Of a DNA stretch of 64,000 bases, positions 2 through 60,209 are shown piece after piece. Every line of letters begins with the position of its first letter. The first letter of the stretch is position 1. The stretch covers positions 6,358 through 70,357 of the forward strand of contig JAPLLR010000016.1 of NCBI GenBank assembly GCA_026387455.1, written 5' to 3'. This stretch comes from Candidatus Omnitrophota bacterium (GTDB lineage Bacteria > Omnitrophota > Gorgyraeia > Gygaellales > Profunditerraquicolaceae). The position numbers were made by a program, and so were the translations under genes. Under the pieces are notes generated by a model. It made no database searches. It saw only the letters and a list, made by a program, of their open reading frames with translations, and was not told the origin of the DNA.

Positions 2-529
2 GCTTTGTGTGTAGTGCAAATCGAAGTGATGCCAAGGCCTGATGAATGCAGGACCAGCGCCTATCCATGGCCAAAATATCCCCTGCTTCTTAAGACATCC
101 TCCAGCCACGAAGAAGGGGGAGAGCGACACTGGGCGGTATTGACAAAGAGCTTTATCGGGGAAAAGGGATGTGTAAAGAAGCTTTCTTGCGTAAGGGTGG
201 AGTTTACTCAAGAAAAGGCTTTAACCTGCGCTATTATGAAAGAGGTTAGGGGAAGCGAATTTGAGATCGAGGCGGATCTGGTGATACTGGCTATGGGTTT
301 TCTGCACCCTGAGCATCCGGGCCTGCTTACTGACTTGAAAGTCAAATTTGACGAGCGGGGCAATGTGTCAACTGATTCAAATTATGTGACCTCAGTGGAA
401 AAAGTTTTTTCCGCGGGAGATATGCGGCGCGGGCAATCGCTGGTGGTCTGGGCGATTTCAGAAGGAAGACGCGCAGCTTATTCTATAGACAAATACCTGA
501 TGGGTGAAAGCAATCTGGCGATTATATAG
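2..529 (+). CDS. gltD: Glutamate synthase small subunit-like NAD(P)H oxidoreductase, C-terminal part. The gene starts upstream of the window.
   Basis: The open frame runs off the 5' edge. The C-terminal motifs EADLVILAMGF and FSAGDMRRGQSLVVWAISEGRRAA are typical of GltD and pyridine-nucleotide-disulfide oxidoreductase C-termini. Confidence 0.55.
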   Translation, partial: ALCVVQIEVMPRPDECRTSAYPWPKYPLLLKTSSSHEEGGERHWAVLTKSFIGEKGCVKKLSCVRVEFTQEKALTCAIMKEVRGSEFEIEADLVILAMGFLHPEHPGLLTDLKVKFDERGNVSTDSNYVTSVEKVFSAGDMRRGQSLVVWAISEGRRAAYSIDKYLMGESNLAII

Positions 530-582
530 CACCCAACCTTATAGGACAGGTTGGTGTTCAGCTTTCTGCTGAAGGGGGTAAT

Positions 583-4127: not shown

Positions 4128-4281
4128 TTATTAATAATAGCACAGCCGGTAGGCAAATCCTATTGTAAAGGTATATTTTTCGCGGTAGAATATTGATTCG
4201 CACGAGAGAAAGTTTAGAGCTCATTTTACCCCCAATTTTATGGGATAAATTGGGGTTGAGCTTGTGCTCAAGGAGGAAAAG

Positions 4282-6699: not shown

Positions 6700-8388
<1,689 letters not shown>

Positions 8389-8389
<1 letters not shown>

Positions 8390-9492
8390 TGAAAGAAGCG
8401 ATTTTAGCCCTAGAAGACGGAAAGATTTTTAAAGGGAAATCTTTTGGCGCCCAAGGTGAGCGGACCGGCGAGGTGGTTTTTAACACCAGCATGTCCGGAT
8501 ACCAGGAGATCATTACTGATCCTTCCTATAAGGGCCAGATTGTGACTATGACCTATCCTTTAATGGGTAATTATGGTGTAAACACCGAAGACGTGGAGTC
8601 GCGTAAGCCGTATCTCGAAGGTTTTGCGGTACATGTTTACAGCAAGATTGCAAGCAACTGGCGCAAGGATCAAGCGCTGGGAGACTATCTTAAGGAGAAT
8701 AATATTCTAGGTATTGAAGGTATTGATACCCGTGCTCTTACCTTGCATATTCGTTTAGCTGGTGCGATGAAAGCGGTTTTATCTACCGTAGACCTGAATG
8801 AGAAAAGATTAATAGAGAAAGCTAGAAAATCCAAAGGCCTGGTGGGAGTAGATCTGGTCAAAGAGGTTACTTGCACTAAGAAATATATTTGGGGTAAGAT
8901 AAAGAAGGCAAAATACAGGGTGGTGGTTCTGGATTGCGGAGTTAAATATAATATCCTGCGTGAGTTGTTTAAGCGCGGATGCGAAGTGATGGTAATGCCG
9001 GCAACTGTTAATAGCGGTGAGATCCTTAAACTTAAGCCTCATGGCTTGCTGCTTTCAAATGGGCCCGGTGACCCCGCGGCAGTGAGATATGTGGTTACGA
9101 CTGTAGTCCAGCTTATCGGAAAATTGCCGATTTTCGGGATATGTCTTGGTCAGCAGATGTTGGGTTTGGGCTTGGGGGCAGATACCTATAAATTAAAGTT
9201 CGGACACCACGGAGCCAATCAGCCGGTGATGGATCTGAAGACGAAAAAAGTTTTGATTACTAGTCAGAATCACGGATTTTGCGTTAATATTGATTCATTA
9301 CTAAGGAAGAATATCGAGATCACTCATGTTAATTTAAACGACAATACTCTGGAAGGGTTTAAGCATAAGAAATTTCCGGTGTTCTGCGTGCAGTTTCATC
9401 CTGAGGCTTCTCCCGGTCCGCACGATGCCGAATATTTATTTGATAATTTTATCCAGCTGATGAAAAAACATGCCAAAAAGAACAGATATTAA
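8389..9492 (+). CDS. carA: Carbamoyl-phosphate synthase small (glutaminase) subunit.
   Basis: Matches the CarA N-domain and its type-I glutamine amidotransferase domain (GICLGQQ...HGAN). Its start overlaps the pyrG stop. Confidence 0.9.
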
Positions 9493-11128
9493 GAAGATTT
9501 TAATAATCGGCTCGGGCCCGATAGTAATCGGCCAAGGCTGTGAATTTGATTATTCCGGCACCCAGGCCTGCAAGGTTTTGAAGCAGGAGGGGTTTGAGGT
9601 GGTGCTGGTGAATTCTAATCCAGCGACTATTATGACTGATCCCCAGCTGGCGGACCGGACTTATGTGGAGCCGATCACCCCGGAAATGGTGGCTAAGATA
9701 ATCAAGAAAGAGCGTCCGGATGCGTTGTTGCCCACTTTAGGCGGGCAAACCGCGTTGAATACCGCGGTGGCCCTGGCTGAAATGGGGGTCTTAAAGAAAT
9801 TTAAAGTTGAGACAATCGGGGCAAATATTAAAGCCATCAAAAAAGGCGAAGACAGAAGGCTTTTTAAGGAGGCGATGCTCAAAATCGGCTTAGATCTTCC
9901 CAAAAGTGATAAGGCCTATAAATTGGACGAGGCCTGCAAAGTCGCTGAAAAAATCGGTTTTCCGGTTATCATCCGGCCGAGTTTTACTCTAGGTGGCACT
10001 GGAGGAAGCGTGGCTTATAATGCAGAGGAATTCAGAGTCCTTGCCAAGCACGGTTTAGAATCCAGCATGATCAGCGAGATCCTGGTCGAGGAATCTGTGG
10101 CGGGATGGAAAGAATTTGAGCTGGAGGTTATGCGCGACCTGAAAGATAATGTAGTGATCATCTGTTCTATTGAGAACCTTGATCCCATGGGCGTACATAC
10201 CGGAGACAGCATTACTGTGGCACCCATTCAGACTCTGACCGATAAGGAATATCAGAAGATGCGCGATGCGGCTATTGCCTGTATTCGGGAAATCGGGGTT
10301 GAGACGGGTGGATCGAATATTCAGTTTGCCCTAAACCCTGATAATGGTCGCATGGTAGTGATTGAGATGAACCCCAGGGTCTCCAGAAGTTCTGCTTTGG
10401 CTTCCAAGGCTACAGGTTTTCCTATCGCGAAAATCGCGGCAAAGTTAGCTGTTGGGTATACTCTGGATGAGATTCCCAATGATATTACCCGCGTGACCCC
10501 CGCCTGTTTTGAGCCTTCTATAGATTACTGCGTGGTGAAGATCCCGCGCTTTACTTTTGAGAAATTCCCTTCCGCGGATTCTACCCTTACGGTTTCCATG
10601 AAGAGCGTGGGAGAAGCGATGTCCATAGGCAGGACTTTTAAGGAGTCTTTGCAAAAAGGCCTGCGTTCCCTTGAAATCAAGAAGTTTGGTTTAGAGAGCA
10701 TGCTTTTTACGGATATCAGAAATATTAAGATGGCTTGTGACACCCTGGAAATTATCTATCAAAAACTTGTGGTTCCCAATGCAGAGAGGATCTTTTATCT
10801 GGGGGATGCTTTTCGTGCCGGAGTGGGCATAGAGAAGATCTTTGAGCTGACTAAAATCGATCGCTGGTTCCTTTATAATATTAAAGAGATAATTGATTTG
10901 GAAAAGGAGATCGTAAAGGCCGCAAGCGTTAGTAAAGAATTATTGAAACAGGCCAAGGATTGCGGGTTTTCTGACCGACAACTGGCCAAACTTTTAGGCA
11001 AAAAAGAAGAAGATATCTATAAGCTGCGTAAGTTCTTTGGTATTACACCAGCCTTTAAATTAGTGGATACCTGTGCTGCGGAATTTCAGGCGCACACGCC
11101 GTATTTTTACTCTACCTACGATAAATAA
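9470..11128 (+). CDS. carB: Carbamoyl-phosphate synthase large subunit, N-terminal half only (split carB).
   Basis: The N-terminus [24 protein letters not shown] is followed by the first ATP-grasp and oligomerisation domains. The protein ends at ...YFYSTYDK, which is the mid-protein domain boundary (552 aa versus about 1070 aa for a full CarB). Confidence 0.8.
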
Positions 11129-11138
11129 GGTTGTAAAT

Positions 11139-11564
11139 ATGTGCTTTAGAATAATTCTATTCTGTTTATTGATTACTTCTATTTCTTATTTAGCGCAGGC
11201 GAAAGAGAAGGGTAAATTGGTTTGTTTTAAGAATGCTTGTGTGAGCGCGGAAACGGCGAGCACTCCGGAAGAAAAGCATCGGGGATTAATGTTCAGGAAA
11301 ACTCTAGGAGGGCTCTCGGGAATGCTTTTTGTCAATCAGCACGAGGGTCTATACCCATTTTGGATGAAAAATACGCTGATTTCCCTCGATATTATCTGGA
11401 TAAGTAAAGACAAAAAAGTTGTCTATATCGCAAAGAACGTTCAGCCTTGCCTTGAAACGTGTGAGGCTATTAAACCGGCTTGTCCGGCCCAGTATATATT
11501 AGAGGTTAATGCTGGATTTATTGAGAAATATCAGATTAAGGTTGGGCAAAGATTAGATTTCTAA
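11139..11564 (+). CDS. DUF192 family protein with a signal peptide.
   Basis: A hydrophobic N-terminus is followed by GLMFRKTLGGLSGMLF...PFWMKNTLISLDIIWI...YILEVNAGF, typical of DUF192/COG1430. Confidence 0.55.
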   Translation: MCFRIILFCLLITSISYLAQAKEKGKLVCFKNACVSAETASTPEEKHRGLMFRKTLGGLSGMLFVNQHEGLYPFWMKNTLISLDIIWISKDKKVVYIAKNVQPCLETCEAIKPACPAQYILEVNAGFIEKYQIKVGQRLDF

Positions 11565-11635
11565 TCAAAGCCTAAAAAATAGTCTTGATTCCCGATGTAT
11601 TTAGGCTACAATGGCTAAAGAGGAGAAAACGTATA

Positions 11636-11863
11636 ATGAAAATGATCATCGGTTTGACCTTCCCGGGTGAGCTTAAAGATGAGTCGATCATCTGCACCCT
11701 TTGCAAGAATTTCGATATCAAGCTGAATATTTTCGAGGCATCATTCTCTATGTATTCGGGATGGGCGATACTAGGTATTGAAGGCGAAGAGGAAGTGCTC
11801 AAAAAATCTTTCGATTTTTTGAGGACCAAGAACATCAACATCGAGAAAATTGAGACAAAATAA
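11636..11863 (+). CDS. Standalone NIL-domain protein (MetN C-terminal-like regulatory domain).
   Basis: MIIGLTFPGELKDESIICTLCKNFDIKLNIFEASF...WAILGIEGEEEV...NINIEKIE matches the NIL domain. The start is taken at the ATG after an AGAGGAG RBS. Confidence 0.55.
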   Translation: MKMIIGLTFPGELKDESIICTLCKNFDIKLNIFEASFSMYSGWAILGIEGEEEVLKKSFDFLRTKNINIEKIETK

Positions 11864-11902
11864 CCTCTTTCTCTGGGCGCTCCAAGGCGCCGAAAGTTTC
11901 CC

Positions 11903-13831
11903 ATGGATAAAGAAGAGGTAATAGTAGAATTTTTAAAAGGCCTACGTATCTGCCTTAATAACGCCTCGGTTTATTTCAAAGAGCATCCCTACTATATCAA
12001 ATCCGTAAACGAGTTTAAGGTTAAGATAGATTCCTTCCTTAAGTTTATCAACCCCATCAAAGTCAATATTGCGCCGGATTCGCTTTTTATTGCTGGCACC
12101 CCTTACGCCAAGTCCCAGCTTTTTACAGAGCTAGCCGCTTTTTTTCATATCCGTAAGATCAAAAGTATAGAGCTGCGTGAAGGGTTGACTATCGATGAGC
12201 TGCTTAATTTTTTAAGCGTCATCGCTCTTGCGCCCAAAGAGATTTTAAAGCGCGGCGGGGCGCAGAACATCATTAATATTGAGCATAACGCGCACTGCTT
12301 TGTGGAGCAGCTTGATTATTCTCAGTTATTGGGAAGTGTGGGGGAAGAGGCCAAAGACGTCTGGCTGTATTTGTTCGGAGAAGCGGCTCAGACTAATGAT
12401 GCGCAAAAGATCCAGCAGTGCGTGAATAATTTCGGTTCTGTGGCCGACTCGTTAAATGTGCGCGACCTTACCGAGGATGAAGAGCTTAAAGAAAATATCT
12501 GCAGTTTTTTAAGTTGCCTCAAGGACAGCCAGAAGGAAGATTATGAGAAGTGCAGCAAAGAGATGTTTAAAGCGGTGTTTAAGTATAAAGATGCTATTAC
12601 TCCTGAGCAGGCACAGAAGATCAAGGCCATATTTAAAGGCCTGAGTCAGGATCAGTTCGCGGATATACTGTTGGACGGTATTGTCAAAGACGATAATTTT
12701 GATGTTTTGAGCATGCAGCTTTTTTCCCGGCTTGCCGGAGAGGAGAGCGCGCAGGGGATCTCCTCTTCTATCTTAGCTAATGCAGGCGCTAAATCAGTGG
12801 TCAAGGAAAATCCGCATATCGCTAAAAGGGTGCACAGTCTTTTATCCGGACCGGACACCCAGTCTATTTCTGAAGGCTACCGTCACATACTATCAAGCTT
12901 GCTTAAGGATATCTCTTTTGATAAAGGGGTGTTTTTTGACCGCTCCCAGCTACATGTCAATTACCGTTATATCCTTCTGGCTCTTATTGATGATGAGCAT
13001 AAGTATGACAGTCTCAGTCTTGTGGTGAATAAGTTGGTTGAAGAATGGGAGAAGATTGTAAACGACAAGGACACCGTCTTTTTGCGTTGCGTATACGATA
13101 TTATCCGTAGGAAGAAAAAGGATAATATCGCAATCGACGCGGTATTCGTTGAGCTGGATAAACGCATGGTTGAGTTTATCGAGCATATACTTTGGGAAGG
13201 GCAGTCTTTGCCGGATTTGGAATATCTGGCTGACAGGCTAAAGAAGAGTTCTTTGGAAATTGATTTCTTTCTGGGCAAAATTTTTGAACAGGGGTGTATC
13301 AGCCCCTCAATATTGAAATTGTTTTTTAGGTCTTTCCCCGCAGAGAAAGGTAAATTCTATAAAAAGCTTGAAGCTCGTCGTGCAGATATGGATTTCCTTA
13401 GCCGGATAATCCATAGTTTAAAGAACCTTGATTCGAAGTTAGCTCTTGATGCGTTGATAAAAGTCTATGGCTTGACCAATGAGCTTGTGGGGGCAGAGAT
13501 TTTAAGAATAATGCAGGGCCTGCCTGAAATAAACGCGAATTTTACGCTTTCGATCCTTAAAAAATCCGGTGCACGCTTGAAGAAAGAGGCGCTGGGAATC
13601 TTGATGAGGGACGCGCAGTTAAGGAGGCGGGCAGCAACTACGCTACTTGGCATTTTAAGCTTGTTCGGTATGAACAATGGCCTGCTTATTGAGAATATGG
13701 ATTTATGTTCTCAGGCAGGGCTTAAAGAGGCCGGAGATTATCTTGAGTTACTAAAAAACAGGCGGTTCTTCTGGAATCGCGGAGTTAGGGAAAAGGCGAA
13801 AGTTACCTTGGAGAAGCTGAATGCTGGATAA
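11903..13831 (+). CDS. Hypothetical 642-aa helical protein. Its N-terminal domain is paralogous to the N-domain (DUF3391-like) of the downstream HD-GYP protein, and it has no HD domain.
   Basis: The N-terminal roughly 130 aa align with the next ORF (YFKEHPYYIKSVNEF versus YSTEHPMFKKSAEKAF; ELREGLTIDELLNFLSVIA versus IERIAFYKGVQAEEFNKFIIFLA). Confidence 0.5.
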   Translation: MDKEEVIVEFLKGLRICLNNASVYFKEHPYYIKSVNEFKVKIDSFLKFINPIKVNIAPDSLFIAGTPYAKSQLFTELAAFFHIRKIKSIELREGLTIDELLNFLSVIALAPKEILKRGGAQNIINIEHNAHCFVEQLDYSQLLGSVGEEAKDVWLYLFGEAAQTNDAQKIQQCVNNFGSVADSLNVRDLTEDEELKENICSFLSCLKDSQKEDYEKCSKEMFKAVFKYKDAITPEQAQKIKAIFKGLSQDQFADILLDGIVKDDNFDVLSMQLFSRLAGEESAQGISSSILANAGAKSVVKENPHIAKRVHSLLSGPDTQSISEGYRHILSSLLKDISFDKGVFFDRSQLHVNYRYILLALIDDEHKYDSLSLVVNKLVEEWEKIVNDKDTVFLRCVYDIIRRKKKDNIAIDAVFVELDKRMVEFIEHILWEGQSLPDLEYLADRLKKSSLEIDFFLGKIFEQGCISPSILKLFFRSFPAEKGKFYKKLEARRADMDFLSRIIHSLKNLDSKLALDALIKVYGLTNELVGAEILRIMQGLPEINANFTLSILKKSGARLKKEALGILMRDAQLRRRAATTLLGILSLFGMNNGLLIENMDLCSQAGLKEAGDYLELLKNRRFFWNRGVREKAKVTLEKLNAG

Positions 13832-15158
13832 AATTGAGTCTAATTTCAGGGACCTTTTGTCGGCGCTGCAGACGGCGAAGCTCTATAGCACAGAGCATCC
13901 GATGTTTAAGAAATCCGCGGAGAAAGCGTTTATTAGCCTTCAGGAAGTGCTGCGCGACAGGGACGATCTGGTTCTGGGTTTTGTTGGCGATGAGATCGCT
14001 TTTGAGAAAGAGATATTTTTTGATTTAAGCAAGATGGTCAGGCCGGCGATAATATATCTCAAGGATCGTGGTATTGAGCGCATTGCTTTTTATAAAGGAG
14101 TACAGGCCGAGGAGTTCAACAAGTTTATCATATTTCTGGCGGGGCCCAAAGACGAGTCCAAGCGCGAAGCGCAAGAACATCTGACGTTTTTAGGGATAGA
14201 GAATATTGTGGTTGGAAAGATCAAGGTAGGCGGTAAGTCGGGAGAAGCTCAAGGAAAAGGTGTAGCCGTAAACATGTACGACAGTTCTTTGGATAAAGTT
14301 TCTCAGTCTTTGGCCAGCGTGCTTGATTCCGAGACAATAGACCACCTGGTGCTTAAGTTTTCCATCAACAATATACTAGAAAGCCTGAGCACCCAGCATC
14401 AGGAGTTTATGAAATTTACTACGCTTAAGCGTTACGACGTGGGCACGTATGTTCATTTATTGAACGTGTGTATATTAAGCATGTATTTTGCTTCGAAGCT
14501 CGGGTTTGCCCGGGATGATGCCCTCGATGTCGGCATCGGCGGATTATTCCATGATATCGGGAAGCTTTATATTTCCCGTAAGATCATTAGCAAAAGCGAT
14601 AAGCTTACCGATGAAGAGCTGAATATGATGGAGAGCCATCCCATGCTTGGCGCTCAGATCCTTTTAGGCTATGCGGATAATCTGGGGATATTGCCTGTGG
14701 TGATCTGTTTTGAGCACCATCTGAAATACAATATGCAGGGTTATCCGAAGAAGCCGTTCACCCGCAAGCCCCATATCGCTACGAGAATAGTTTCTATTTG
14801 CGACGTGTACGACGCTCTTTCCCAGAGGCGCGGATACAAGGCAGATTATGCTCCGGACTTGATCTATAATATTATTTCCAAGGAAAAAGGTACTTCCTTT
14901 GACCCGGAGATGGTGGATAAATTTTTTAGGATCATGGGAGTTTGGCCAATTGGCTCTATAGTGGGCTTAAATGACGGCAGGGTGGCGGTGGTTACCGATG
15001 AGCACGAGGATGATATTTTCTCGCCCTCTGTAAGGGTGATCGGGCCGCAGCCAGAGCTTGAGGCTTTAGATTTGCGGCAAAGCTCGGGAAGTCTGCGTAT
15101 TGAGCGTTATCTTAACCCCTGGACAGAAGGAAAAGAGTATTTGCGCTTGGTGCAATAG
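13821..15158 (+). CDS. HD-GYP domain phosphodiesterase with an N-terminal DUF3391-like domain.
   Basis: Carries the HD motif (GGLFHDIGK) and the HD-GYP signature region (HHLKYNMQGYPK). Its start overlaps the upstream gene. Confidence 0.75.
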   Translation: MLDKIESNFRDLLSALQTAKLYSTEHPMFKKSAEKAFISLQEVLRDRDDLVLGFVGDEIAFEKEIFFDLSKMVRPAIIYLKDRGIERIAFYKGVQAEEFNKFIIFLAGPKDESKREAQEHLTFLGIENIVVGKIKVGGKSGEAQGKGVAVNMYDSSLDKVSQSLASVLDSETIDHLVLKFSINNILESLSTQHQEFMKFTTLKRYDVGTYVHLLNVCILSMYFASKLGFARDDALDVGIGGLFHDIGKLYISRKIISKSDKLTDEELNMMESHPMLGAQILLGYADNLGILPVVICFEHHLKYNMQGYPKKPFTRKPHIATRIVSICDVYDALSQRRGYKADYAPDLIYNIISKEKGTSFDPEMVDKFFRIMGVWPIGSIVGLNDGRVAVVTDEHEDDIFSPSVRVIGPQPELEALDLRQSSGSLRIERYLNPWTEGKEYLRLVQ

Positions 15159-15188
15159 GCTTGTGTGATATAATAGGCAAAAATTATA

Positions 15189-15286
15189 CACCTGGCCTAA
15201 TAGGAATGGCCAGTATTTCATCCTAGAAAGGATGCACCCAGCATACCTTTTAGCTGGGGTGCAACTTTCTATGAAAGGAAGTGAGT
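15189..15286 (+). repeat. Modular hairpin repeat (CACCTGGCC-TAATAGGAA-TGGCCAG; TCATCCTAGAAAGGATG; GCACCCAGC...GCTGGGGTGC) forming the 5' leader of the downstream gene.
   Basis: The same module order recurs at 20191-20288 and 34392-34662, and partial versions occur at 530-582 and 60156-60209. Confidence 0.6.
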
Positions 15287-16813
15287 ATGTTAAAGAAAAA
15301 CGGATTCGATAACGATAAGTACTTGAAAGAGCAGACCGTGGCGATCACAGACCGGGTGAAGAAGTTCGATAACAAGCTTTACTTAGAGTTCGGGGGTAAG
15401 CTTTGTTTTGACTATCACGCTGCTCGCGTTCTTCCGGGCTATGACCCTAATGTCAAGATCAGGCTGTTGCAGGAGCTAAAAAACAAGATAGATATAGTGC
15501 TTTGTATCTATGCCGGGGATATCGAGCGGGGCAGGGTGCGCGGAGATTTCGGGATCACATATGATTCTGCTACCTTGAAACTCATCGATGACCTGCGTAA
15601 GTGGGGCCTAGATATCCTTTCTGTTGTGATCACTCGCTTTGCCAATCAGCCCTCGGCGATTATCTTTAAGAATAAGCTTGAGCGCCGCGGGGTAAAAGTC
15701 AACCTGCATTACCCTATCGACGGCTATCCTGCGGATGTGAATAAGATCGCCAGCGAGAATGGATTCGGCAAGAACGAATACATTCAGACCAAGAATCCTA
15801 TTGTAGTGATCACCGCGCCCGGGCCTAATAGCGGAAAGCTTTCCACCTGCCTTTCTCAGCTTTACCATGACCATAAGAGGGGCGTTAATTCCGGCTACGC
15901 TAAGTTCGAGACATTTCCTATCTGGAATTTAGCGCTTAAGCATCCCGTAAACGTGGCTTATGAAGCGGCTACCGCGGATATCCAGGATTTTAATCTGGTC
16001 GACCCTTTTCATTTAAATAAATACAATAAAACCGCCATAAATTATAACCGCGATGTAGAAAGTTTCCCGATATTGAGACTGATCTTAAACCGGATCTTTG
16101 ATAAGAATGCTAACTTACCGATGTATAACTCACCTACGGATATGGGGGTCAACCGTGCGTGGTTTGGTATCGTTGACGATAAGGCGGTGCAGGACGCGGC
16201 AAAGCAGGAGCTTATCCGTAGGTATTTCCGCTATAATACCGAGTATATCCTGGGTATAGAGAAAAAAGAGACGGTGGATAGGGTAATGATGTTGATGGAG
16301 GAGATGGGGGTCAAGCCCACGGATCGGACCGTACTGGAAGTGGCGCGTAAATCAGCTGATGAGGCAGAGGTAAATGGTAAGGGTAATGAGGGGATCTACT
16401 GCGGCGCAGCCCTGCAGCTGAATGACGGACGCATTATTACCGGAAAAAATTCTAAATTTATGCATGCGGCTTCCGCGCTGATCCTGAATGCGGTAAAGCA
16501 GCTGGCCAATATTCCCGATGAGATACTTCTATTATCCCCGCATATCATCAGTCAGATCGCCAAGCTTAAAGAAGGAATCCTGGATGCCGACTCCGAGAGT
16601 CTTGATCTTGAGGAGTCCCTGATAGCTTTATCTATAAGCGCAACCACCAATCACACCGCGGAGCTGGCGATGAATAAACTGGTGGAACTCAGTGGCTGTG
16701 AGGTGCAAATGACCCAAATCCACACTCCCGGAGACGAGGTGGGGCTTAAGCGGCTGGGGGTGAACCTTACTACAGACGGAAAGTTCTCTTCACGCAATCT
16801 TTTTGTCGCCTGA
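15287..16813 (+). CDS. DUF1846 / UPF0371 family protein.
   Basis: The N-terminus (FDNDKYLKEQTVAITDRVKKFDNKLYLEFGGKLCFDYHAARVLPGYDPN) and the 510-aa length match UPF0371. Confidence 0.6.
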   Translation: MLKKNGFDNDKYLKEQTVAITDRVKKFDNKLYLEFGGKLCFDYHAARVLPGYDPNVKIRLLQELKNKIDIVLCIYAGDIERGRVRGDFGITYDSATLKLIDDLRKWGLDILSVVITRFANQPSAIIFKNKLERRGVKVNLHYPIDGYPADVNKIASENGFGKNEYIQTKNPIVVITAPGPNSGKLSTCLSQLYHDHKRGVNSGYAKFETFPIWNLALKHPVNVAYEAATADIQDFNLVDPFHLNKYNKTAINYNRDVESFPILRLILNRIFDKNANLPMYNSPTDMGVNRAWFGIVDDKAVQDAAKQELIRRYFRYNTEYILGIEKKETVDRVMMLMEEMGVKPTDRTVLEVARKSADEAEVNGKGNEGIYCGAALQLNDGRIITGKNSKFMHAASALILNAVKQLANIPDEILLLSPHIISQIAKLKEGILDADSESLDLEESLIALSISATTNHTAELAMNKLVELSGCEVQMTQIHTPGDEVGLKRLGVNLTTDGKFSSRNLFVA

Positions 16814-17499
16814 TGGATCTGAAGAAGTATAAGTCCGGAATTGGATTTATTTTATTGGTTCTTGGTATATTTCTTCTTTGGTATCTGGGCAGATTCTTAC
16901 ACCTGGATATCCAGGCAATCCGCAAGCCGCTTGAAAGTTTTCCGCTATTTGTCAGCAGTTTTGTCTTTGTGATCCTTTATGTAGTGGTCACGTTCTTTGT
17001 TTTTTTCTCTAAGGACATATTTTATTTGGCCGGAGCCTTAATCTTCGGGCCGTATTTGAGTGCGGTTTTGATCTTTATTTCTGAAGCGCTGAACGCCTGC
17101 ATACTTTTTTATTGTTCTAGATACCTTGGGCGGGCGTATGTCCGGGATTCTCTATCTGGGAAATATCAGCGCTTGGATGAGCAGCTAGGCGGCATAAGCT
17201 TATTCTGGCTTTTTATTTTTCGGGCGGCACCCCTGATACCTTACCGTTTTCTGGATATGGCCGCGGGTCTGACCCGCATGAGGTTCAGTAAATATTTTGC
17301 GGCAGTTCTACTCGGCTCTTTTCTAAAGATATTCTGGATACAGTTTATTTTGTACGGCGTAGGAGAGAGCGTGATCAGCAATCCGAATGCACTTTTTGAT
17401 TACTTTCTTAATAATCAGCCGGTATTTTTATTCAGTCTTTTGTATTTGGTGTTAGTGGGCATGGTTATTTATAAAATCAGAAAGAAATTTAAGACATGA
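16813..17499 (+). CDS. TVP38/TMEM64 (DedA-related) family membrane protein.
   Basis: Multi-pass hydrophobic profile with the LIPYRFLDMAAGLTRM motif, typical of the YdjX/TVP38 family. Confidence 0.6.
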   Translation: MDLKKYKSGIGFILLVLGIFLLWYLGRFLHLDIQAIRKPLESFPLFVSSFVFVILYVVVTFFVFFSKDIFYLAGALIFGPYLSAVLIFISEALNACILFYCSRYLGRAYVRDSLSGKYQRLDEQLGGISLFWLFIFRAAPLIPYRFLDMAAGLTRMRFSKYFAAVLLGSFLKIFWIQFILYGVGESVISNPNALFDYFLNNQPVFLFSLLYLVLVGMVIYKIRKKFKT

Positions 17500-18890
17500 G
17501 CGTAAATTTAAAATTCTTAGGGGGTGTACGCACAGTCACCGGATCAAGCCATTTAGTGACTACTGATAAGTCTGAGATTTTGCTTGATGCCGGGATGTTT
17601 CAGGGCCACCGCGATGAGTCTTATATGATCAACGCTACCCTTCATTACAATCCGCGTAAGATCAAAGCCATGGTTTTGTCGCACGCGCATATCGACCACT
17701 GCGGGAATATTCCGATCCTGATCAAAAAGGGTTTACGTTGTAAGATCTATGCCACCTCAGCCACTAAGGATCTCACGGCGCTGATGCTTGAGGATTCCGG
17801 CAAGATACAGGAAGAGGATGTGCGCTATGTGAATAAGATTAATAAGCGCCTGGGTCTGCCGCCCAGAGAGCCGCTTTACACCAAGAAAGAGGCGATGCGC
17901 GCGACAAAAATATTTCGCTCCATATCTTACGAGCAGCGCTTCTGTATTGCCAAGGAGTGCTTTGCCACTCTCCATGACGCAGGGCATATCCTGGGCTCAA
18001 GCATTATAGTGCTCGATGTAAAAGACGGAGTGAAAAATATCCGTATCGGCTATGCCGTTGACCTAGGTAGGAAGAATCTTCCGCTTTTGAATGATCCGGT
18101 GATTCCGCACAGATTAGATTATTTGATCATTGAAAGCACTTATGGTGGCAGGTTCCACGCGCCGATAGAAGAGGCCCAGTCGCGCCTGCGCGAGGCGATC
18201 AACCGTGCGGTACAGCGCGGGGGCAAGATTTTAATCCCCTCATTTGCCCTTGAGCGCACGCAAGAGGTGCTGTATTTCTTAAATGAGTTGATCAAGCAAC
18301 AACTGGTCCCATCAATTCCTATATATGTGGACAGTCCGCTTGCAACAGGCATTACCGATTTATTCACCCACCACATGGATTTTCTGGACTCTAAGACCCG
18401 CCAGGCAATAGCCCGCGGGGAGAGTCCTTTTGAGCTCTTGAATCTACGCTTCGTGCGCGACCAGACAGAGTCAAAGGCCCTGAATATTGACAAGCGGCCG
18501 ATGATCATCATTGCCGGAAGCGGAATGTGCGAATCCGGAAGGATGCTACATCATCTTAAGAACAATATAGAAGATTCCCGTAATATGGTACTTGTGGTAG
18601 GGTACATGGCAAAGAATACTTTAGGCAGGAAAATTGTCGAAAGGGAGAAATTAGTGCGTATTTTCGGCGTGGAATACGAGCTTAACGCAGAAGTGGTGAT
18701 CATCAACGCGTTTTCCGGACACGCGGATAAAACAGAGCTGGTGGATTTTGTCCGGCAGTGCCTGCCGCTTAAGCGGATATTCCTGGTGCATGGCGATGAA
18801 GAGCAGACTCTGCACTTGTATGACGCGCTGGTAGCCATGGGTCAGAATGTGCTTATCCCGTTTAAGGGTGAAGAAGTGTTGCTTAGTTGA
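17496..18890 (+). CDS. MBL-fold metallo-hydrolase of the beta-CASP family (RNA-metabolising nuclease, RNase J/CPSF-like).
   Basis: Carries the HAHIDHCG motif II and the downstream beta-CASP motifs (ESTYGG, HADKTEL). Confidence 0.7.
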   Translation: MSVNLKFLGGVRTVTGSSHLVTTDKSEILLDAGMFQGHRDESYMINATLHYNPRKIKAMVLSHAHIDHCGNIPILIKKGLRCKIYATSATKDLTALMLEDSGKIQEEDVRYVNKINKRLGLPPREPLYTKKEAMRATKIFRSISYEQRFCIAKECFATLHDAGHILGSSIIVLDVKDGVKNIRIGYAVDLGRKNLPLLNDPVIPHRLDYLIIESTYGGRFHAPIEEAQSRLREAINRAVQRGGKILIPSFALERTQEVLYFLNELIKQQLVPSIPIYVDSPLATGITDLFTHHMDFLDSKTRQAIARGESPFELLNLRFVRDQTESKALNIDKRPMIIIAGSGMCESGRMLHHLKNNIEDSRNMVLVVGYMAKNTLGRKIVEREKLVRIFGVEYELNAEVVIINAFSGHADKTELVDFVRQCLPLKRIFLVHGDEEQTLHLYDALVAMGQNVLIPFKGEEVLLS

Positions 18891-18953
18891 AGGATTCGTG
18901 GTAGTATTATTTTCGCTATAAAATAAAGAGTTTAATCTATGGAGGGTTTTACA

Positions 18954-19202
18954 ATGGCTGGCGGAAAATCTACACCAAAGAAAGATCAAGCGTTAAAAGT
19001 CGCAAGTGGCGAGTTAGTCAAGACCGGGCAGATCATGGTCCGCGGTATCCCTGTATATAAGGCCGGGGTGAACGTTGCTGGGCTAGGTACGCTTTACGCC
19101 CTTTGCAGTGGGAAAGTCTTTTTCCGGCATAAGAAAACAAGCCATGGCAAGGTGCGCACTTTTATCGGCGTCACTCCAATAAAGGAAAAAGCCGCTAAAT
19201 AA
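18954..19202 (+). CDS. rpmA: 50S ribosomal protein bL27 (divergent).
   Basis: The core ALKVASGELVKTGQIMVRGIPVYKAGVNVAGLGTLYALCSGKVFF matches the L27 pattern (G-x-I-I-V-R...NVG-G-D-TLFA-DG-V-F). A GGAGGG RBS is present. There is no adjacent rplU. Confidence 0.6.
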   Translation: MAGGKSTPKKDQALKVASGELVKTGQIMVRGIPVYKAGVNVAGLGTLYALCSGKVFFRHKKTSHGKVRTFIGVTPIKEKAAK

Positions 19203-19204
19203 GC

Positions 19205-20205
19205 ATGCCCCAAGAAGCAGGTATCCAGGAAAGAGCTAGGAAGTATTCGCTAAAGAAATATTCTCTGGCTCTGTTGGATACCGTAGTTACGCTTGCCCTG
19301 CTTCTGATTTTTTTGGCTACAGGTTTATCCCGGGCTCTTACTGAGGGCCTGGGATTTATTTTTTCAAGCAGCTATTTCACTGTTCCTGTTTACCTGCTCG
19401 TTGTAATTCTTGCCTACTATTTGATCACTTTTCCACTTACTTTTTACCAATCCTATACTCTTGAGCACGAATTTTCTCTGTCCCGGCAAAGCGTAAAATC
19501 GGGGTATTCTGGATATTTTTCTCTATTGTCATGGCTAATCTTTTGCCTGTATTAATCATACCTTTATTTTTTAAATATAAGAAACTTGAGGATGAAACAC
19601 TGCGCCAGAGGATAATTGTTTTAGCGGGCAAGATGAAAGTAAGGGTTCTGGATGTTTTTGAGATAGACTTAAGCAAAAAGTCTTTAAAAGGCAATGCCGC
19701 TTTCGTGGGGGCGGGGAACACGCGAAGAGTGCTTTTGGCAGACACCTTAAAAGATAAATACACCTATGAGGAGATAGAGGTGATTCTGGCGCATGAGTTC
19801 GCGCACTACCGCTTGAAGCATTTATTGAAGCTAATATTGGTCAATTCCGCGGTGACTCTGGTAACTTTTTTTGTAATTTATGCCACCAGCAGTTCGGCGC
19901 TGTGGTTGTTTGGGTTGTCTTCGTATCTAGAGCTTGCGGCTTTACCATTACTCTTTTTTTATTTTGCGGTTTTTGGTGTAATTTTGCAGCCGTTTGGGGC
20001 TTTTATCAGCCGCTGTTTCGAGCGTAGTGCTGATAGGATGGCCATACAGGTGACCGGCCTGAAAGACGCCTTTATCTCGACCATGGATAAGTTGGGTGAT
20101 CAGAATCTTTCGGATCGTAATCCGCACCCGCTTATTAAATTTTACTTTTTCGACCATCCGCCCATAGATGAGCGGATCAAGATGGCAAAACACCTGGCCT
20201 TATAG
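19205..20205 (+). pseudogene. M48-family (Ste24/HtpX-like) zinc metalloprotease, disrupted by a frameshift near 19531-19555 and an apparent internal deletion of about 40 codons.
   Basis: ORF 19205-19555 carries the N-terminal LEHEFSLSRQ region. ORF 19531-20205, in another frame, carries PLFFKYKKLEDETLRQRI...ILAHEFAHYRLKH (HEXXH). The two transmembrane helices normally between them are missing. Confidence 0.55.
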
Positions 20206-20288
20206 GAAAGGCCAGTGTTCCGTCCTAAAAAGGACGCACCCAGCCTACTTATTAGCTGGGGTGTAGCTTTCTGCGTAAGGAGGTTAAG
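20191..20288 (+). repeat. Modular hairpin repeat (TTATAGGA-loop family) overlapping the stop codon of the M48 gene and forming the leader of the next gene.
   Basis: CACCTGGCC-TTATAGGAA-AGGCCAGTG, then TCCGTCCTAAAAAGGACG, then GCACCCAGC..GCTGGGGTG, then AGCTTTCTGCGTAAGGAGG. The TAG stop of the M48 CDS lies inside the TTATAGGA loop. Confidence 0.6.
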
Positions 20289-20696
20289 ATGAAAAGAATA
20301 GCTGGGTTTTTGTTTGTATTATTTTTTGTTGTGTCTTCTGGTTCATCAGTTTTCGCACAAGGGTTCAGGGGCATGAGTGATGTTGTCCCACCGCCATTTG
20401 TGATTTATCCTAGTGAGCGTGCTGACATAAGCGGCAAAGACGTGCTCACCCTTAAGTGGAAGACCCCGGGAAGTTTTGATATTGACCACGTGGAGTTTAA
20501 GCTGTATAAAGGATATATCACCGCGGATTCCAACTTGGTCTATAAAGAGGATGTTGATCCGGTTGAGTCTGAGGTGGATGTGAAGGCCGATCTTTTGCAA
20601 GATGGCCAGACTTACACCATGTATTTACGTTCGATATCACGCGAGGGCTACAAAAGTGACCGGGTGTTTAATTCTTTTCAGGTAATTAAGAAATAA
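20289..20696 (+). CDS. Small secreted hypothetical protein (signal peptide).
   Basis: The N-terminal hydrophobic stretch ends in AQG. A strong AAGGAGG RBS is present. No known motif. Confidence 0.5.
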   Translation: MKRIAGFLFVLFFVVSSGSSVFAQGFRGMSDVVPPPFVIYPSERADISGKDVLTLKWKTPGSFDIDHVEFKLYKGYITADSNLVYKEDVDPVESEVDVKADLLQDGQTYTMYLRSISREGYKSDRVFNSFQVIKK

Positions 20697-21816
20697 ATTC
20701 AAGGATTATTCTTGCTGCACGGGAGGCGGCACCGGGTTCGCCGAGGGAGGATTTGACGAGGGCGAGATTCGAAGTGATTTCTTGAAGTTTCGCTGGATTG
20801 CGCATGATCTGTAACACTTCATGCGCAATTTTTTTAGGGATAGCGCCAAGCTGAATAAATTCCGGAATAATTTTTTTACCTGCTACAATATTCACCATTC
20901 CAATATAGGGCAATTTCACTTGTGGTCGGTATAGAAGGTAATTCAACAGGTTCATCTTATAGACCACGCAGAAAGGTTTTTGCATAATCGCGGTTTCCAG
21001 GGTGGCTGTGCCTGAGCAGACCAGCGCAAAATCCGCGATATTCAGGCAGTCATAAGTTTTCCCTTCCGCGATTTTCACTTCTACTTTAAAGCGATCGATG
21101 ATCCGGTTGTAAGTTTTCCAGTCAACCGAAGGTGATTTGACGATCACGAATTGCGCATTCATTTGTTCACTTATCAGTTTGACTGACTCTAACATGATGG
21201 GGAGGATATTGTTGATTTCTTGTTTGCGCGAGCCGGGAAGTAGGGCGATGGTCGGAGTATCTTTGGAGAGTTTTAGGTGGTTTAGAAATTCATCCTTCTG
21301 TACGGTAGGCTTTACTATGTCCAGTAGCGGGTGCCCCACAAAATCTACATTCATCCCGTATTTTTTGTAGAATTCCTTTTCGAATTTAAAGAGCACAATC
21401 ATTTTTCGGATATATTTCTTAATCGTCTGCACCCTGCCCGGCCTTGAGGCCCAGACTTGGGGGCTCACGTAATAGATGGTTGGTATAGTGTTATTGAGCT
21501 CTTTGGCCAGGCGCAGGTTAAAGCCGGAGAAATCAACGAATATTACCGCATCGAATTTTTCTTGATTGATAGTATAGAGAAGGAATTTTTTTAATTCGAA
21601 GAACTTGGGGAGTTTCTTAAAGACATCAAAAATCCCGAATACCGATAACCCTTTTATATCGTAAAGGATCTCAGCACCCGCCTGGCGCAGAAGTTCACTG
21701 CCCACGCCGAAGACTTTAAGCTCTGGGTTGATTTTCTTTAGGGCGCTGGTGAGATTTGCCGCGTGAAGAACTCCTGAGGCCTCTCCGCAGATGATCAGAA
21801 TCTTTTTTTCTGCCAT
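20686..21816 (-). CDS. lpxB: Lipid-A-disaccharide synthase.
   Basis: The N-terminus KILIICGEASGVLHAANLTSAL and the overall GT-B glycosyltransferase pattern are typical of LpxB. Confidence 0.8.
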   Translation of the reverse strand: MAEKKILIICGEASGVLHAANLTSALKKINPELKVFGVGSELLRQAGAEILYDIKGLSVFGIFDVFKKLPKFFELKKFLLYTINQEKFDAVIFVDFSGFNLRLAKELNNTIPTIYYVSPQVWASRPGRVQTIKKYIRKMIVLFKFEKEFYKKYGMNVDFVGHPLLDIVKPTVQKDEFLNHLKLSKDTPTIALLPGSRKQEINNILPIMLESVKLISEQMNAQFVIVKSPSVDWKTYNRIIDRFKVEVKIAEGKTYDCLNIADFALVCSGTATLETAIMQKPFCVVYKMNLLNYLLYRPQVKLPYIGMVNIVAGKKIIPEFIQLGAIPKKIAHEVLQIMRNPAKLQEITSNLALVKSSLGEPGAASRAARIILEFIS

Positions 21817-22807: not shown

Positions 22808-23160
22808 TTATTGTTTAGCGGGTCCTGCCTTGGCTTGTCCTGCGCGCGGCTTTTTGCCGTGCTCGGATCAAGCCAAGTCACCCGCTAAACCTACCATTTA
22901 TCAGCAAGCTTGTTGTTAGCGGCTGACTTGGACTGCACCTTGCTTTATCGGATAAGCAAGTGTGCTCTTCTGGGCTGATTTCGAGTGGTTCCTCGGACGC
23001 CCCGCTCAAAGCGACCCTCGTCACCCTTGACTGAAAGTTTCAGTTGGCGGGAGGCTTGGCTTGGTTTCGAGCAGGGCTAGAAATGAGCGCAGGTGCGGCA
23101 CAACGCTGGGCCGCACCAAGCGTCCCTGCGAGAAACAAGACAAGCCGACCAGCCATGAGT
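22808..23160. repeat. GC-rich highly structured element of about 350 bp, copy 1 (second copy at 52048-52455).
   Basis: Long nested inverted repeats (GTTTAGCGGGTCCTGCCTTGGCTTG ... CAAGCCAAGTCACCCGCTAAAC; GGTGCGGCACAACGCTGGGCCGCACC) and terminal inverted-repeat-like ends. Its GC content is far above the flanking DNA. Confidence 0.7.
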
Positions 23161-23223
23161 GATTGTAGTTTTGAATCAAAGATATCTCGACAAAGAGGAG
23201 CGAATGTGGTATAGTGCAACCTT

Positions 23224-27305: not shown

Positions 27306-27375
27306 ATGTGTAGCTTTCTGCTCACCCCAAACTTAATGGATAGTTTGGGGTGAGCTGGTGCTCAAGGAGGTAGCT

Positions 27376-28311: not shown

Positions 28312-28406
28312 GTAGCACAGATACATACAAATAATCATATCGTGCATCTGGCGCAATAGGAGGCGCCAGTGCGCATTAGGTATTGCGCCAGTGCGCATTA
28401 GGTAAT

Positions 28407-34391: not shown

Positions 34392-34662
34392 CACCTGGCC
34401 TTATAGCACCTTGGCATATAGGATTGTCAAGGTGCGTCCCTTCTGGGACGGATAAGCCAGCTGCACAAACAGTGCGCGTTCGCCCAACCTATTGGGCGAG
34501 GCGTGTTCCGTCCTAAAAAGGACGCACCCAGCATACCTTTTAGCTGGGGTGCAGCCTTCTGTTACACCCAACTTTAGCCCCTTCCTTAAAAGGTACAGGA
34601 AGAGCTACCCCTCTGGGGTTATAGGAAAAGTTGGTGTTGTGCTTACTGCACAAGGAGAGAAA
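34392..34662 (+). repeat. Roughly 270-bp compound array of hairpin repeat modules forming the entire metK-ahcY intergenic region and the ahcY leader.
   Basis: Contains at least eight stem-loops, including the CACCTGGCC-TTATAG, TCCGTCCTAAAAAGGACG, GCACCCAGC..GCTGGGGTGC and CCTTCCTTAAAAGGTACAGGAAG modules shared with other intergenic regions. Confidence 0.6.
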
Positions 34663-38244: not shown

Positions 38245-38384
38245 ATGAGGACATGACTTATGGAGCCGCCGCAACGCGGCAGGCGATCATAAGGCCCTTC
38301 CTTTATCGGATGGGAAGGCCTACCCCTGTGGGGTAAGTCATATGTCCGAATTTATCCCGTCCCTGGCCAATCTGAAAGATTGTC

Positions 38385-40159: not shown

Positions 40160-40350
40160 ATCTGCCCCGCCTCATAAACGCCGCAAAGTTTCTCGGCGCT
40201 TCGCGCCAGTAAACCTTGCTGGCATTCGGCGGGATTAAGCCCCTTCCTTATAGGAGAGGAAGGGCTACCCATTTTGGGTAATTCGCGTTTTGACTTACTC
40301 ACACCGCCTGCCTGCGGCAGGCAGGTGTTCGTAAGTCAAGCGTTCATTAA

Positions 40351-60138: not shown

Positions 60139-60209
60139 AAAGAATTTTATCAAAGCACCTGGCCTTATAGGATAGGCCAGTGTTCCGCATTCTGCGGAAG
60201 GAGGGTATA

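Follow-up and report, generated by a model that had tools for sequence, protein, structure and literature searches.

Short hairpin repeats upstream of ribosome-binding sites in an Omnitrophota genome, probably small mobile elements of the REP/BIME kind

The DNA considered here, referred to as the window, is a 64-kb stretch of a metagenome-assembled genome (MAG) of an Omnitrophota bacterium, 6.4% of which is intergenic. The DUF1846 protein that it encodes is 100% identical to one from an NCBI MAG of a 'Candidatus Omnitrophica bacterium'. Between an HD-GYP gene and a DUF1846 gene with its start at 15287, the window contains a run of small hairpins (15188-15286) that opens with ACACCTGGCC-TAATAGGAAT-GGCCAGT, followed by CATCC-TAGAAA-GGATG, and continues through CACCCAGC-N10-GCTGGGGTG and CTTTC-TAT-GAAAG to GGAAG and the ATG; an extended -10-like sequence, TGATATAAT, is located just 5' of this module. 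Hairpins with a TWATMGGA loop are found at 529-557, 4228-4256, 15188-15214, 20190-20218, 27322-27353 and 60155-60183. An earlier note on this DNA had described such hairpins as a family of modules placed in front of start codons, and both the matches of a covariance model and the covariation of the stem confirm that the family is real. The copies are probably lineage-specific, small, non-autonomous mobile repeats of the repetitive extragenic palindrome (REP) and bacterial interspersed mosaic element (BIME) kind, resembling miniature inverted-repeat transposable elements (MITEs), rather than a conserved regulatory switch.

The family has been delimited using an alignment of 16 copies of its principal hairpin, hairpin A (alignment A1), on a structure of three pairs, a bulged C, five pairs and a 10-nt loop, and a covariance model, R1, built from the aligned copies. 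R1 has 12 matches in the window at E <= 2e-6 (best E 3e-13), besides which two copies are interrupted by nested insertions. All 12 matches lie on the + strand and all 12 are intergenic, which has a probability of ~5e-15 given the intergenic share of the DNA. Pairing is present in 94% of the cells of the A stem vs 69% in column shuffles, a value reached by 0 of 500 shuffles; furthermore, seven of the eight pairs of the A1 alignment have changes on both sides, and shifting the 3' partner of the stem destroys the pairing. In 30 copies drawn from the window and from other loci, the loop consensus is Y-T-A-T-(A/C)-G-G-A-(T)-(A/G), and the A and GGA of the loop, the bulged C and a single G of the 3' stem arm are invariant (30/30), while the positions 5' of the stem are conserved only as W-R. 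A repeat finder clusters the modules into families D1, D4, D5 and D13.

The loop motif emphasized in the earlier note fares differently from the hairpin as a whole, which is enriched: the bare octamer TTATAGGA is observed 6 times against 2.4 expected, and 6 of 100 shuffles reach 6. The hairpin reported at 15189 is present, but its octamer is TAATAGGA and not TTATAGGA, and the copy list given at that time overlooked further members at 6374, 22935, 28344, 34564-34637, 38293 and 40239. A search of the window with Rfam at the gathering threshold yields just three tRNAs and no module match, an E-value scan of 34300-34700 returns chance-level matches (E about 1), and a viral contig collection contains zero copies of hairpin A. 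A literature search on intergenic and palindromic repeats in Omnitrophota found nothing, and by that search the repeat family is not previously described.

The unit of about 45 nt is made up of the imperfect hairpin A and a small second hairpin. Hairpin A is 27-29 nt long, with a stem of 8-9 bp and one bulged C, and has the form R-CAC-(bulged C)-N5 / YTATMGGAWA loop / N5-GTG. In the A-D subfamily the second hairpin, D, reads TT-NNN-C / TTTCT / G-NNN-AA, and its stems vary yet stay complementary (TTCAGC/GCTGAA, TTCCGC/GCGGAA, TTGAGC/GCTCAA, TTGTGC/GCACAA, TTACAC/GTGTAA, TTGCGC/GCGCAA and others), with 15 cells changed on both sides vs 5.0 in shuffles (0/500). In the E-F subfamily a hairpin E (GCCCCTTCC / loop / GGAAGGGC) is followed by F (TACCCC-N4-GGGGTA). 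Long forms are A-B-C-d(-A-D) mosaics, in which module B is CGTCC-TAAAAA-GGACG, d is a degenerate D and module C is read as an inverted A-like hairpin because R1 scores it on the minus strand only (E 9e-4 to 0.017). The A-B-C order recurs in three long forms of the window (family D1) and in L014, L016, L018 and L039, where L numbers denote loci from other assemblies. In the short forms (529, 4228, 27322 and 60155), hairpin A leads directly to the small hairpin and then to the Shine-Dalgarno sequence (SD), so that the fixed order of modules claimed earlier holds in the long forms and fails in the short ones. The members in the window are as follows.

529..578, + strand: short form; A 529-557, D 557-573 (TTCAGC-TTTCT-GCTGAA), SD GGGGG 574-578; 42.4 bits; PPDK_N-like gene start 583.
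4228..4276, + strand: short form with variant stem; A 4228-4256, loop TTTATGGGATAA, D 4256-4271 (TTGAGC-TTGT-GCTCAA), SD GGAGG 4272-4276; 37.3 bits; HMGL-like gene start 4282.
6374-6417, + strand: E-F unit, GGCCCCTTCC-TTAATAGGATA-GGAAGGGCC + ACCCCCGTGGGGTA; 30.9 bits.
15188..15281, + strand: long form; A 15188-15214 (loop TAATAGGAAT, 37.5 bits), B 15219-15234, C 15235-15261 (R1 match on the - strand, E 9e-4), D 15265-15277, SD GGAAG.
20190..20283, + strand: long form; A 20190-20218, B 20221-20236, C 20237-20263, degenerate d 20264-20278, SD AAGGAGG 20277-20283; 46.6 bits; start of a gene for a 135-aa protein at 20289.
22935..22963, + strand: A-type hairpin, loop TTTATCGGATAA; 41.7 bits; within a ~350-nt repeat in the divergent lpxB-side/ABC-transporter region.
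27322..27370, + strand: variant short form at the pyrH/frr junction; A 27322-27353 with no bulge, loop TTAATGGATA, small hairpin GAGC-TGGT-GCTC 27352-27363, then SD AAGGAGG; 29.3 bits; frr start 27376.
28344..28406, + strand: A-type hairpin, loop CAATAGGAGG, then two CGCATTAGGTAWTGCG hairpins; 27.8 bits; directly 5' of tRNA-Gly, with no SD after it.
34392..34658, + strand: composite leader at the metK/ahcY junction; ahcY start 34663.
38293..38335, + strand: E-F unit, loop TTTATCGGATG + TACCCCTGTGGGGTA; 32.1 bits; inside a larger nested-hairpin spacer, no SD abutment.
40239..40280, + strand: E-F unit, loop TTATAGGAGA + TACCCATTTTGGGTA; 39.1 bits; no SD abutment.
60155..60205, + strand: short form in the tig/clpP junction; A 60155-60183, D 60183-60199 (TTCCGC-ATTCT-GCGGAA), SD GGAGGG 60200-60205; 48.6 bits, the best match; clpP GTG start 60210.

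As previously claimed, the genes downstream of the units (PPDK_N-like, HMGL-like, DUF1846, a 135-aa protein with no Pfam match, frr, ahcY and clpP) are unrelated to one another. The unit at 529 begins directly after the TAG of the upstream open reading frame (ORF; TAG at 527-529), a promoter-like site (4163-4191) lies upstream of the unit at 4228, and a GTAGCTTTCTGC box (27310-27321) lies 5' of the unit at 27322. The E-F unit at 6374 is followed, in front of the second csp gene, by an SD-abutting hairpin with a TAATAG loop (6418-6445). Hairpin A at 20190 encodes the last five codons and the TAG of the M48 protease ORF, and the stop codon does lie within the hairpin loop (20203-20205) as the earlier note had stated; tig and the HD-GYP gene, which were said to end at the module, have their stops 16 and 29 nt before the hairpin. 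The placement before start codons applies to the A-D units, which abut the SD, and does not apply to the tRNA member or the mid-spacer E-F units. Since one member stands in front of a tRNA gene, the family is not bound to translation.

In minimum free energy folds, including that of the unit at 529, A and D are predicted to form separate hairpins that leave the SD unpaired. The predicted fold of 20186-20295 is different in that CUUUCU of the degenerate d pairs with the SD (AGGAGG), and this copy could, if the modelled sequestration occurs, act as a structural switch. The conserved sequence of the D loop, C/UUUUCU, matches the neighbouring AGGAGG as its complement if G-U pairs are counted, for example at 563-567, 20268-20273 and 60189-60193. 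Mismatches on the sense strand show a weak excess of G-U (7) over A-C (3), an asymmetry that is too weak to identify the folding strand or to settle an RNA-level role. Three other functions or structures were considered and discarded. An intrinsic terminator is ruled out, as no T-run follows hairpin A on the + strand; a promoter is ruled out, as there is no consistent -35/-10 inside the unit and the -10-like boxes lie upstream of it; and a kissing interaction between the A loop (AGGAA) and the D loop (UUUCU) was dropped, as the variant UUACU does not covary with the A loop.

The position of the units relative to the SD was examined by comparison of empty and filled sites at the leaders of rpmA, DUF1846, the 135-aa gene and clpP, with the following results (a slash marks the junction in an empty site).

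rpmA leader: empty in the window, TTTAATCTAT / GGAGGG, and in L021, TTTAATC / GGAGGG; filled in L025, TTAATATT (44-nt unit) GGAGGG.
DUF1846 leader: empty in L021, AAAAATAGT / GGAGAG; filled in the window, AAAAATTAT (module...GAAA) GGAAG.
135-aa gene leader: empty in L021, ...GTTT / GGAGGGG; filled in the window, ...GCGTAA / GGAGG.

The empty sites already contain GGAGG, and consequently the SD is native to the site and is not brought by the module. The module therefore does not deliver a ribosome-binding site: the unit lies directly 5' of the native GGAGG and contributes only two A's, its ...AA end turning GGAGG into AAGGAGG. All 18 gene-proximal units examined end flush against GG(A/G)G, with a spacing of 4-9 nt between SD and start, and the units are placed either just after -10-like boxes in 5' untranslated regions (UTRs) or between cistrons. 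The possibility that D is a palindrome templated by the target was rejected using the rpmA pair, in which the native upstream sequence continues without a break up to the left end of the unit, so that both D arms are inserted.

The same kind of site also receives other sequences. The spacer between the RNase-like gene and rpmA (window 18891-18954; L029 8409-8574; L024 13606-13875) and the spacer between tig and clpP (window 60139-60209; L039 9899-10000; L041 1037-1131) are filled by unrelated palindromes in different relatives, just upstream of the same native GGAGG. The repeats that fill these spacers are TGACACC repeats and three kinds of arms: CGTTA/TAACG periodic, GATCAAAG/CTTTGATA and GT-rich/CA-rich. 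In this lineage, the position immediately 5' of the SD seems to act as a general hot spot for insertions that form hairpins.

Copies outside the window were located by exact-pattern scans. The same hairpin occurs in an ENA MAG labelled Planctomycetales (CAYHBB01; L004, L006 and L008), in an Omnitrophota MAG (L001) and in seven JGI sediment contigs (L014-L020), and the same units are present in independent assemblies from NCBI, ENA, JGI and Logan, from several samples; the remaining single matches of the genome scan lack the hairpin context. CAYHBB01, assembly GCA_964354795.1, is a close relative, colinear with 50355-64000 of the window at ~89% nucleotide identity, with a ClpP that is 94% identical. 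In 11 of 12 outside copies the unit, or the composite that it opens, leads into D, GGAGG and a start codon on the same strand, and the genes that follow, which from their N-terminal sequences we take to be pilT, argG, rpoZ, parA, an acyl-CoA dehydrogenase and others, are unrelated. The twelfth, in L015, is an inverted A-D unit (1676-1710, - strand) located between a riboswitch aptamer and the SD of a gene on the other strand. The aptamer (1513-1607, + strand) is of the c-di-GMP-I-GGC type and scores 60.8 bits vs a gathering score of 59, and the repeat occupies the place where the expression platform of the riboswitch would be.

The clearest indication of mobility is the comparison of orthologous junctions, for which contigs syntenic with 5900-24600 of the window were fetched via DUF1846 homologues. 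These relatives are close (DUF1846 is 90-95% identical at the amino acid level in L021-L023 and L028-L033, and L021 has 84-86% nucleotide identity), and R1 has no match in L021-24 or L027-33. At the four shared junctions that carry an element in the window, L021 is empty (4/4), as listed here.

HD-GYP > DUF1846 junction: 128 nt to the ATG with a long form in the window; 38 nt in L021.
M48 > 135-aa gene junction: in the window a long form that supplants ~14 native C-terminal codons and supplies the TAG; no module in L021.
Second csp leader: ~150 nt of extra repeats in the window; the SD-abutting hairpin only in L021.
lpxB-side/ABC divergent region: ~410 nt of extra repeats in the window; absent from L021.

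The spacer between the HD-GYP and DUF1846 genes is 38-40 nt long without a module throughout L021-23 and L028-33, and the orthologue of the HMGL-like gene in L024 is preceded by a plain 21-nt spacer. Conversely, L025/L026 (87%) have one A-D unit before rpmA, where neither the window nor L021 has any, and CAYHBB01 is rich in the family yet carries its units at junctions other than those of the window. In the tig>clpP spacer, the A-D unit of the window has as its counterparts a CGTTA/TAACG palindrome (L039) and a GATCAAAG/CTTTGATA palindrome (L041-44), such that relatives with 94-97% ClpP identity have unrelated palindromes followed by the same GGAGG. The copies are thus shown to be recent gains or losses with respect to close relatives, a pattern which points to a mobile repeat of fast turnover and differs from that of a conserved cis-regulator.

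One sign of mobility put forward earlier does not survive this comparison. A "mini-version" of the module (AGCCTAATAGGCT, at 53659) was thought to mark the lesion in the hldE pseudogene, but this stretch belongs to the native coding part of hldE (EPNRL): in L039 the orthologue is intact (3089-4099, 336 aa) and has the identical GAGCCTAATAGGCTT as codons E-P-N-R-L. This candidate was accordingly rejected as a module and has no bearing on mobility. The hldE gene of the window (53480-54369, PfkB domain) is broken by a 106-nt deletion that ends ~25 nt upstream of the "mini-version" and also has a substitution that introduces an in-frame TAG; this reflects a pseudogene or else a mistake in the assembly.

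Copies mostly stand alone and share one orientation, but nested, tandem and inverted arrangements are also observed. The metK/ahcY leader, part of which (34392-34420) had been reported as one hairpin, contains an outer A (34392-34405 / 34450-34463) that is cut at TATA^GGATAA by a complete nested unit (34406-34449) made up of A 34406-34435 and a small hairpin 34436-34449. Written out, 34392-34463 is CACCTGGCC-TTATA(GCACC...GGGAC)GGATAA-GCCAG, and an equivalent arrangement is found in L001. After this nested part come more hairpins, then B 34509-34524, C 34525-34551 and d 34552-34563, then a second A (34564-34576 / 34620-34637) with its loop interrupted by an E-F unit (34577-34619), and finally D 34637-34653 and the SD GGAGAG. 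The E-F unit of 34564-34637 lies between TTA and TAGG, as does one in L039 (17829-17883) within a different outer stem. A 39-nt sequence is repeated three times in tandem before pgk in L018. Inverted copies are represented by module C, by L015 and by L001, whose leader has both forward and inverted units; in addition, L039 and L041 contain, as an insertion of 45 nt with respect to the window, an inverted E-F unit, and in L039 it is flanked by a 7-nt direct repeat, TTATCCC, homologous to its own end. Together with the presence/absence pattern and the patchy distribution in relatives, the nested, tandem and inverted copies support the MITE/REP-like option among those offered by the earlier note.

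A candidate for the kind of enzyme involved is available from a relative. In L024, a Y1_Tnp protein of 217 aa (Pfam 30 bits vs a cut-off of 23 bits) has SHLHLV and RYVHLNP motifs, which make it a HUH transposase of the REP-associated tyrosine transposase (RAYT) type. Homologues of this protein are common, numbering 2052 at E <= 1e-10, several of which are named as from Omnitrophota. Four RAYT genes, each seen in one or two assemblies (L024 16498-17310; L034 1610-2480; L035 7750-8525, also L036; L037 895-1660, also L038), are flanked by hairpins with the loop AAACCCGCATTG, which have an identical loop and completely different, lineage-specific stems; in L024 and L037, one of these hairpins abuts an SD. 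Omnitrophota therefore do have REP/RAYT-like systems, with hairpins that are built like hairpin A in having a conserved loop and a free stem. Within 10 kb on each side, the AAACCCGCATTG hairpins are confined to the flanks of the RAYT gene. This RAYT clade was rejected as the partner of the family described here, given its different flanking hairpin and the absence of that hairpin from the window.

Taken together, these observations suggest a mechanism of the following kind. Insertion would be selective for orientation and for TA^GGA-like sites, which are found in SDs and in the element's own loop, and such targeting would account at once for the abutment of the SD, the orientation shared with genes and the nesting of units in one another; the preference for GGA is inferred from a handful of junctions. 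The units would be moved by a trans-acting enzyme of the HUH/Y1 type. This is the weakest step and is drawn by analogy with REP/RAYT (PMC3116915, PMC3479197) and other HUH hairpin systems, because none of the RAYT genes examined is flanked by TTATAGGA hairpins. Once inserted, a unit would place two stable hairpins in the 5' UTR or intercistronic RNA while leaving the SD single-stranded and extended to AAGGAGG, on account of which it would be tolerated and may stabilize or insulate the downstream cistron. An effect on the leader at the RNA level may be a secondary role of the repeats.

Several observations weigh against this interpretation. The many different D stems beside near-identical A hairpins are not explained by simple copy-and-paste; the nested junctions differ, being TATA^GGA or TATAG^GA for A-type inserts and TTA^TAGG for E-F inserts; the inverted copies in L015 and L001 do not abut GGA; and no consistent target-site duplication is present at the three empty/filled pairs. 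The search for an enzyme adds to these: tblastn with the L024 RAYT detects Y1_Tnp neither in the window nor in the loci that bear the element, none of the TTATAGGA hairpins was found to adjoin a transposase, whatever its kind, and the AAACCCGCATTG loop is absent from the window. Membership in the REP-RAYT class consequently remains unproven, as the cognate transposase is missing. Moreover, the SD abutment, the invariant GGA loop and the G-U excess are also compatible with selection at the RNA level, and genome coverage amounts to ~64 kb only. The strand bias is of no help in this regard: in 12 of 13 sources GC skew is positive on the strand that carries the element in sense orientation, and it could not tell the orientation of replication from that of transcription. 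Since genes, GC skew and elements of the window nearly all share one strand, the bias there cannot be read as a transcription bias.

A bolder form of the mobile-repeat interpretation, offered only tentatively, is that of a mobile hairpin that homes to the SD. The machinery would recognize TA^GGA in single-stranded nucleic acid, dock at translation-initiation regions and thereby remodel 5' UTRs genome-wide, and the hairpin may later have been recruited as the attachment point of a protein that binds its loop, or as a CUUUCU/SD switch. We know of no description of a mobile element that targets ribosome-binding sites.

It is also conceivable, though unlikely, that the units are primarily elements of post-transcriptional control or RNA stability and that their spread is secondary, as in a domesticated repeat. 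In such a scheme the UAUAGGA loop would be recognized by a CsrA-like protein or a ribonuclease, and A and D would form a 5' stabilizer or processing site, the CUUUCU of the D loop alternatively pairing with the SD, as it does in the predicted fold of 20186-20295. This proposal accommodates the fixed GGA loop and bulged C of hairpin A in the face of covarying stems, the covariation of D, the SD at the foot of D in 18/18 gene-proximal units with normal 4-9 nt spacing, and the location of units in 5' UTRs after -10-like boxes or between cistrons. Likewise, the loop GGA lies ~27 nt upstream of the GGA of a free SD, and a gene for a beta-CASP/RMMBL ribonuclease-like protein (assigned by the Pfam match of its orthologue) is present at 17496-18890. 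However, the same housekeeping genes have plain leaders without a module in relatives that are 84-95% identical, the two element-rich genomes place their units at different genes, and some members precede a tRNA, sit in mid-spacer (E-F) or are inverted, nested or in tandem. There is also no matching Rfam family, and no csrA-like gene was seen in the available sequence, tblastn with two CsrA queries giving no credible match in the window or the loci, which is a weak test as these cover a small part of the genome.

Rather improbable is an origin without any dedicated enzyme, in which the repeats spread and turn over through events of the host's own making, for instance when replication switches template or slips at a hairpin, through insertion mediated by microhomology or through gene conversion among copies, and the spacers upstream of SDs simply tolerate insertions. 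The quite different palindromes held by the tig>clpP and RNase-like>rpmA spacers across relatives would be expected on these grounds, and the 7-nt microhomology of the inverted E-F insertion in L039 to its own end, the tandem triplication in L018 and the want of both a consistent target-site duplication and a nearby transposase are in keeping with it. Near-identical 45-nt units at many unlinked sites in different species are not, and the 0-nt abutment to GGAGG in 18/18 cases, along with recurrent nesting at one loop position, looks site-specific. Finally, chance similarity or an artefact of MAG assembly, for which one might cite the insignificant enrichment of the octamer TTATAGGA and the chimeric contigs that MAGs can have at repeats, is effectively refuted by E-values down to 3e-13, 12/12 intergenic matches on one strand, covariation and recovery from independent assemblies (NCBI, ENA, JGI, Logan).

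If the repeats are mobile as favoured here, REP/BIME-like repeats are active in uncultured Omnitrophota and turn over quickly, as genomes that are ~85% identical differ at every site compared. Should the preference for GGA prove true, they would represent a natural mobile element that homes to ribosome-binding sites, which bears on the evolution of leaders and operon junctions. There are also practical consequences. Metagenome assemblies appear to be broken up by the repeats, as many related contigs reach just 1-4 kb; the repeats also produce apparent gene truncations such as that of the M48 C-terminus, and they could pass for conserved regulatory RNAs in comparative screens.

Other features of the locus and its relatives deserve description. 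The ~350-nt repeat mentioned above is present in two copies in the window (22799-23150 and 52040-52419, 90-96% identical), is absent from L021 and recurs in L006 (4190-4252) and L039 (1660-2100). It contains a long hairpin (TTTAGCGGGT...ACCCGCTAAA), one copy holds an A-type hairpin, and Rfam gives chance-level matches only; it may represent a non-coding RNA or else a further mobile element. A conserved structured spacer that starts with ATGAGG right after a stop codon is found at 38245-38506 and 59099-59259 of the window, in L039 (8820-9010) and in L041 (1-157), with long-range stems (e.g. GAATTTATCCC...GGGATAAAT) around variable inner hairpins; the inverted E-F unit is inserted into this spacer in L039 and L041, and not in the window. 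A further repeat pair (6305-6370 / 33092-33157, 76% identical) forms a nested hairpin, CCCCTCGCC...GGCTTCGGGG, and is followed by SD-abutting hairpins with a TAATAG or CAATAG loop (6418-6445 / 33159-33190); in L021, a hairpin of this latter type stands alone before csp. The M48 protease is split into two overlapping ORFs in the window (19205-20205; 116 aa, M48_N, and 224 aa, M48) vs one gene of 362-381 aa in relatives, a frameshift that reflects either a pseudogene or an assembly error, and in L021 the M48-135aa-lpxB segment is partly duplicated. The trigger factor (59260-60138) has 292 aa with Trigger_N and Trigger_C domains and no PPIase domain detected by Pfam, and is of equal length in L039 and L041.

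Among known systems, the leaders bound by CsrA/RsmA share with the units a GGA in an upstream hairpin loop and a second GGA in the SD, ~27 nt apart. CsrA/RsmA targets are conserved per gene and have unrelated stems, whereas here near-identical units stand at unrelated genes and are absent from orthologous leaders.

The MIRUs of Mycobacterium are reportedly intercistronic repeats co-oriented with operons (Supply et al., 1997). The resemblance extends to the single orientation relative to transcription, the potential to overlap an upstream stop and the short tandem arrays. MIRUs are not hairpin units and contain small ORFs through which translation is coupled. In contrast, the units described here are a hairpin pair, their loop contains TAA/TAG, and they have no ORF that extends to the next start; the stop of M48 lies in a loop, the only such stop, because the native 3' end was replaced.

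BOX (boxA-boxB-boxC) and RUP of Streptococcus pneumoniae and the Correia/NEMIS elements of Neisseria are modular intergenic elements. They resemble the present family in their mix-and-match modules, in their transcribed intergenic or 5' UTR location and in a stable RNA structure able to alter the expression or processing of neighbours. There is no sequence relationship, the unit is smaller here, and it is without the terminal inverted repeats and TA duplication of Correia elements; to our knowledge, SD abutment has not been described for BOX, RUP or Correia/NEMIS. MITEs derived from insertion sequences (IS) differ similarly, as the three empty/filled pairs show no consistent target-site duplication and no parent IS is seen.

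Insertion into hairpin loops has precedents. IS1397 and ISKpn1 insert into REP loops and IS1111-type elements into attC or REP, and HUH Rep proteins nick a conserved nonanucleotide in a hairpin loop. As in these systems, a hairpin loop is the insertion site of the nested copies (TATA^GGA). The difference is that the precedents are full IS or replication origins, whereas the insert here is the small hairpin unit itself, with no enzyme identified.

The closest comparison is with the REP/BIME/REPIN sequences and RAYT (TnpA_REP) transposases of Enterobacteria and Pseudomonas (PMC3116915, PMC3479197, PMC3337134). Conservation in the present family is found in the loop and bulge, as opposed to the 5' GTAG (E. 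coli) at the REP hairpin's foot; REPINs are inverted doublets, while the copies here are mostly single and in one orientation; and REPs are located mainly at gene 3' ends rather than immediately 5' of the SD. The units are also nested in their own loops, and no cognate RAYT was found, the nearby RAYTs using another hairpin. As to the orientation of neighbouring copies, which alternates in BIMEs, the long forms here run A(forward)-B-C(inverted)-d-A-D and the L001 leader holds both orientations, while the majority of copies stand alone. Like REP/BIME sequences, the units are short imperfect palindromes with mismatched or bulged stems that are almost exclusively extragenic and occur in many copies (12 strong and 2 split in 64 kb), form mosaics with other short motifs and inverted copies, undergo compensatory changes in their stems and belong to lineage-specific families. 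The single-stranded hairpin is the presumed substrate in both cases, RAYT-type genes with HUH and Y motifs are present in related Omnitrophota, and related genomes are polymorphic for the presence and absence of the repeats.

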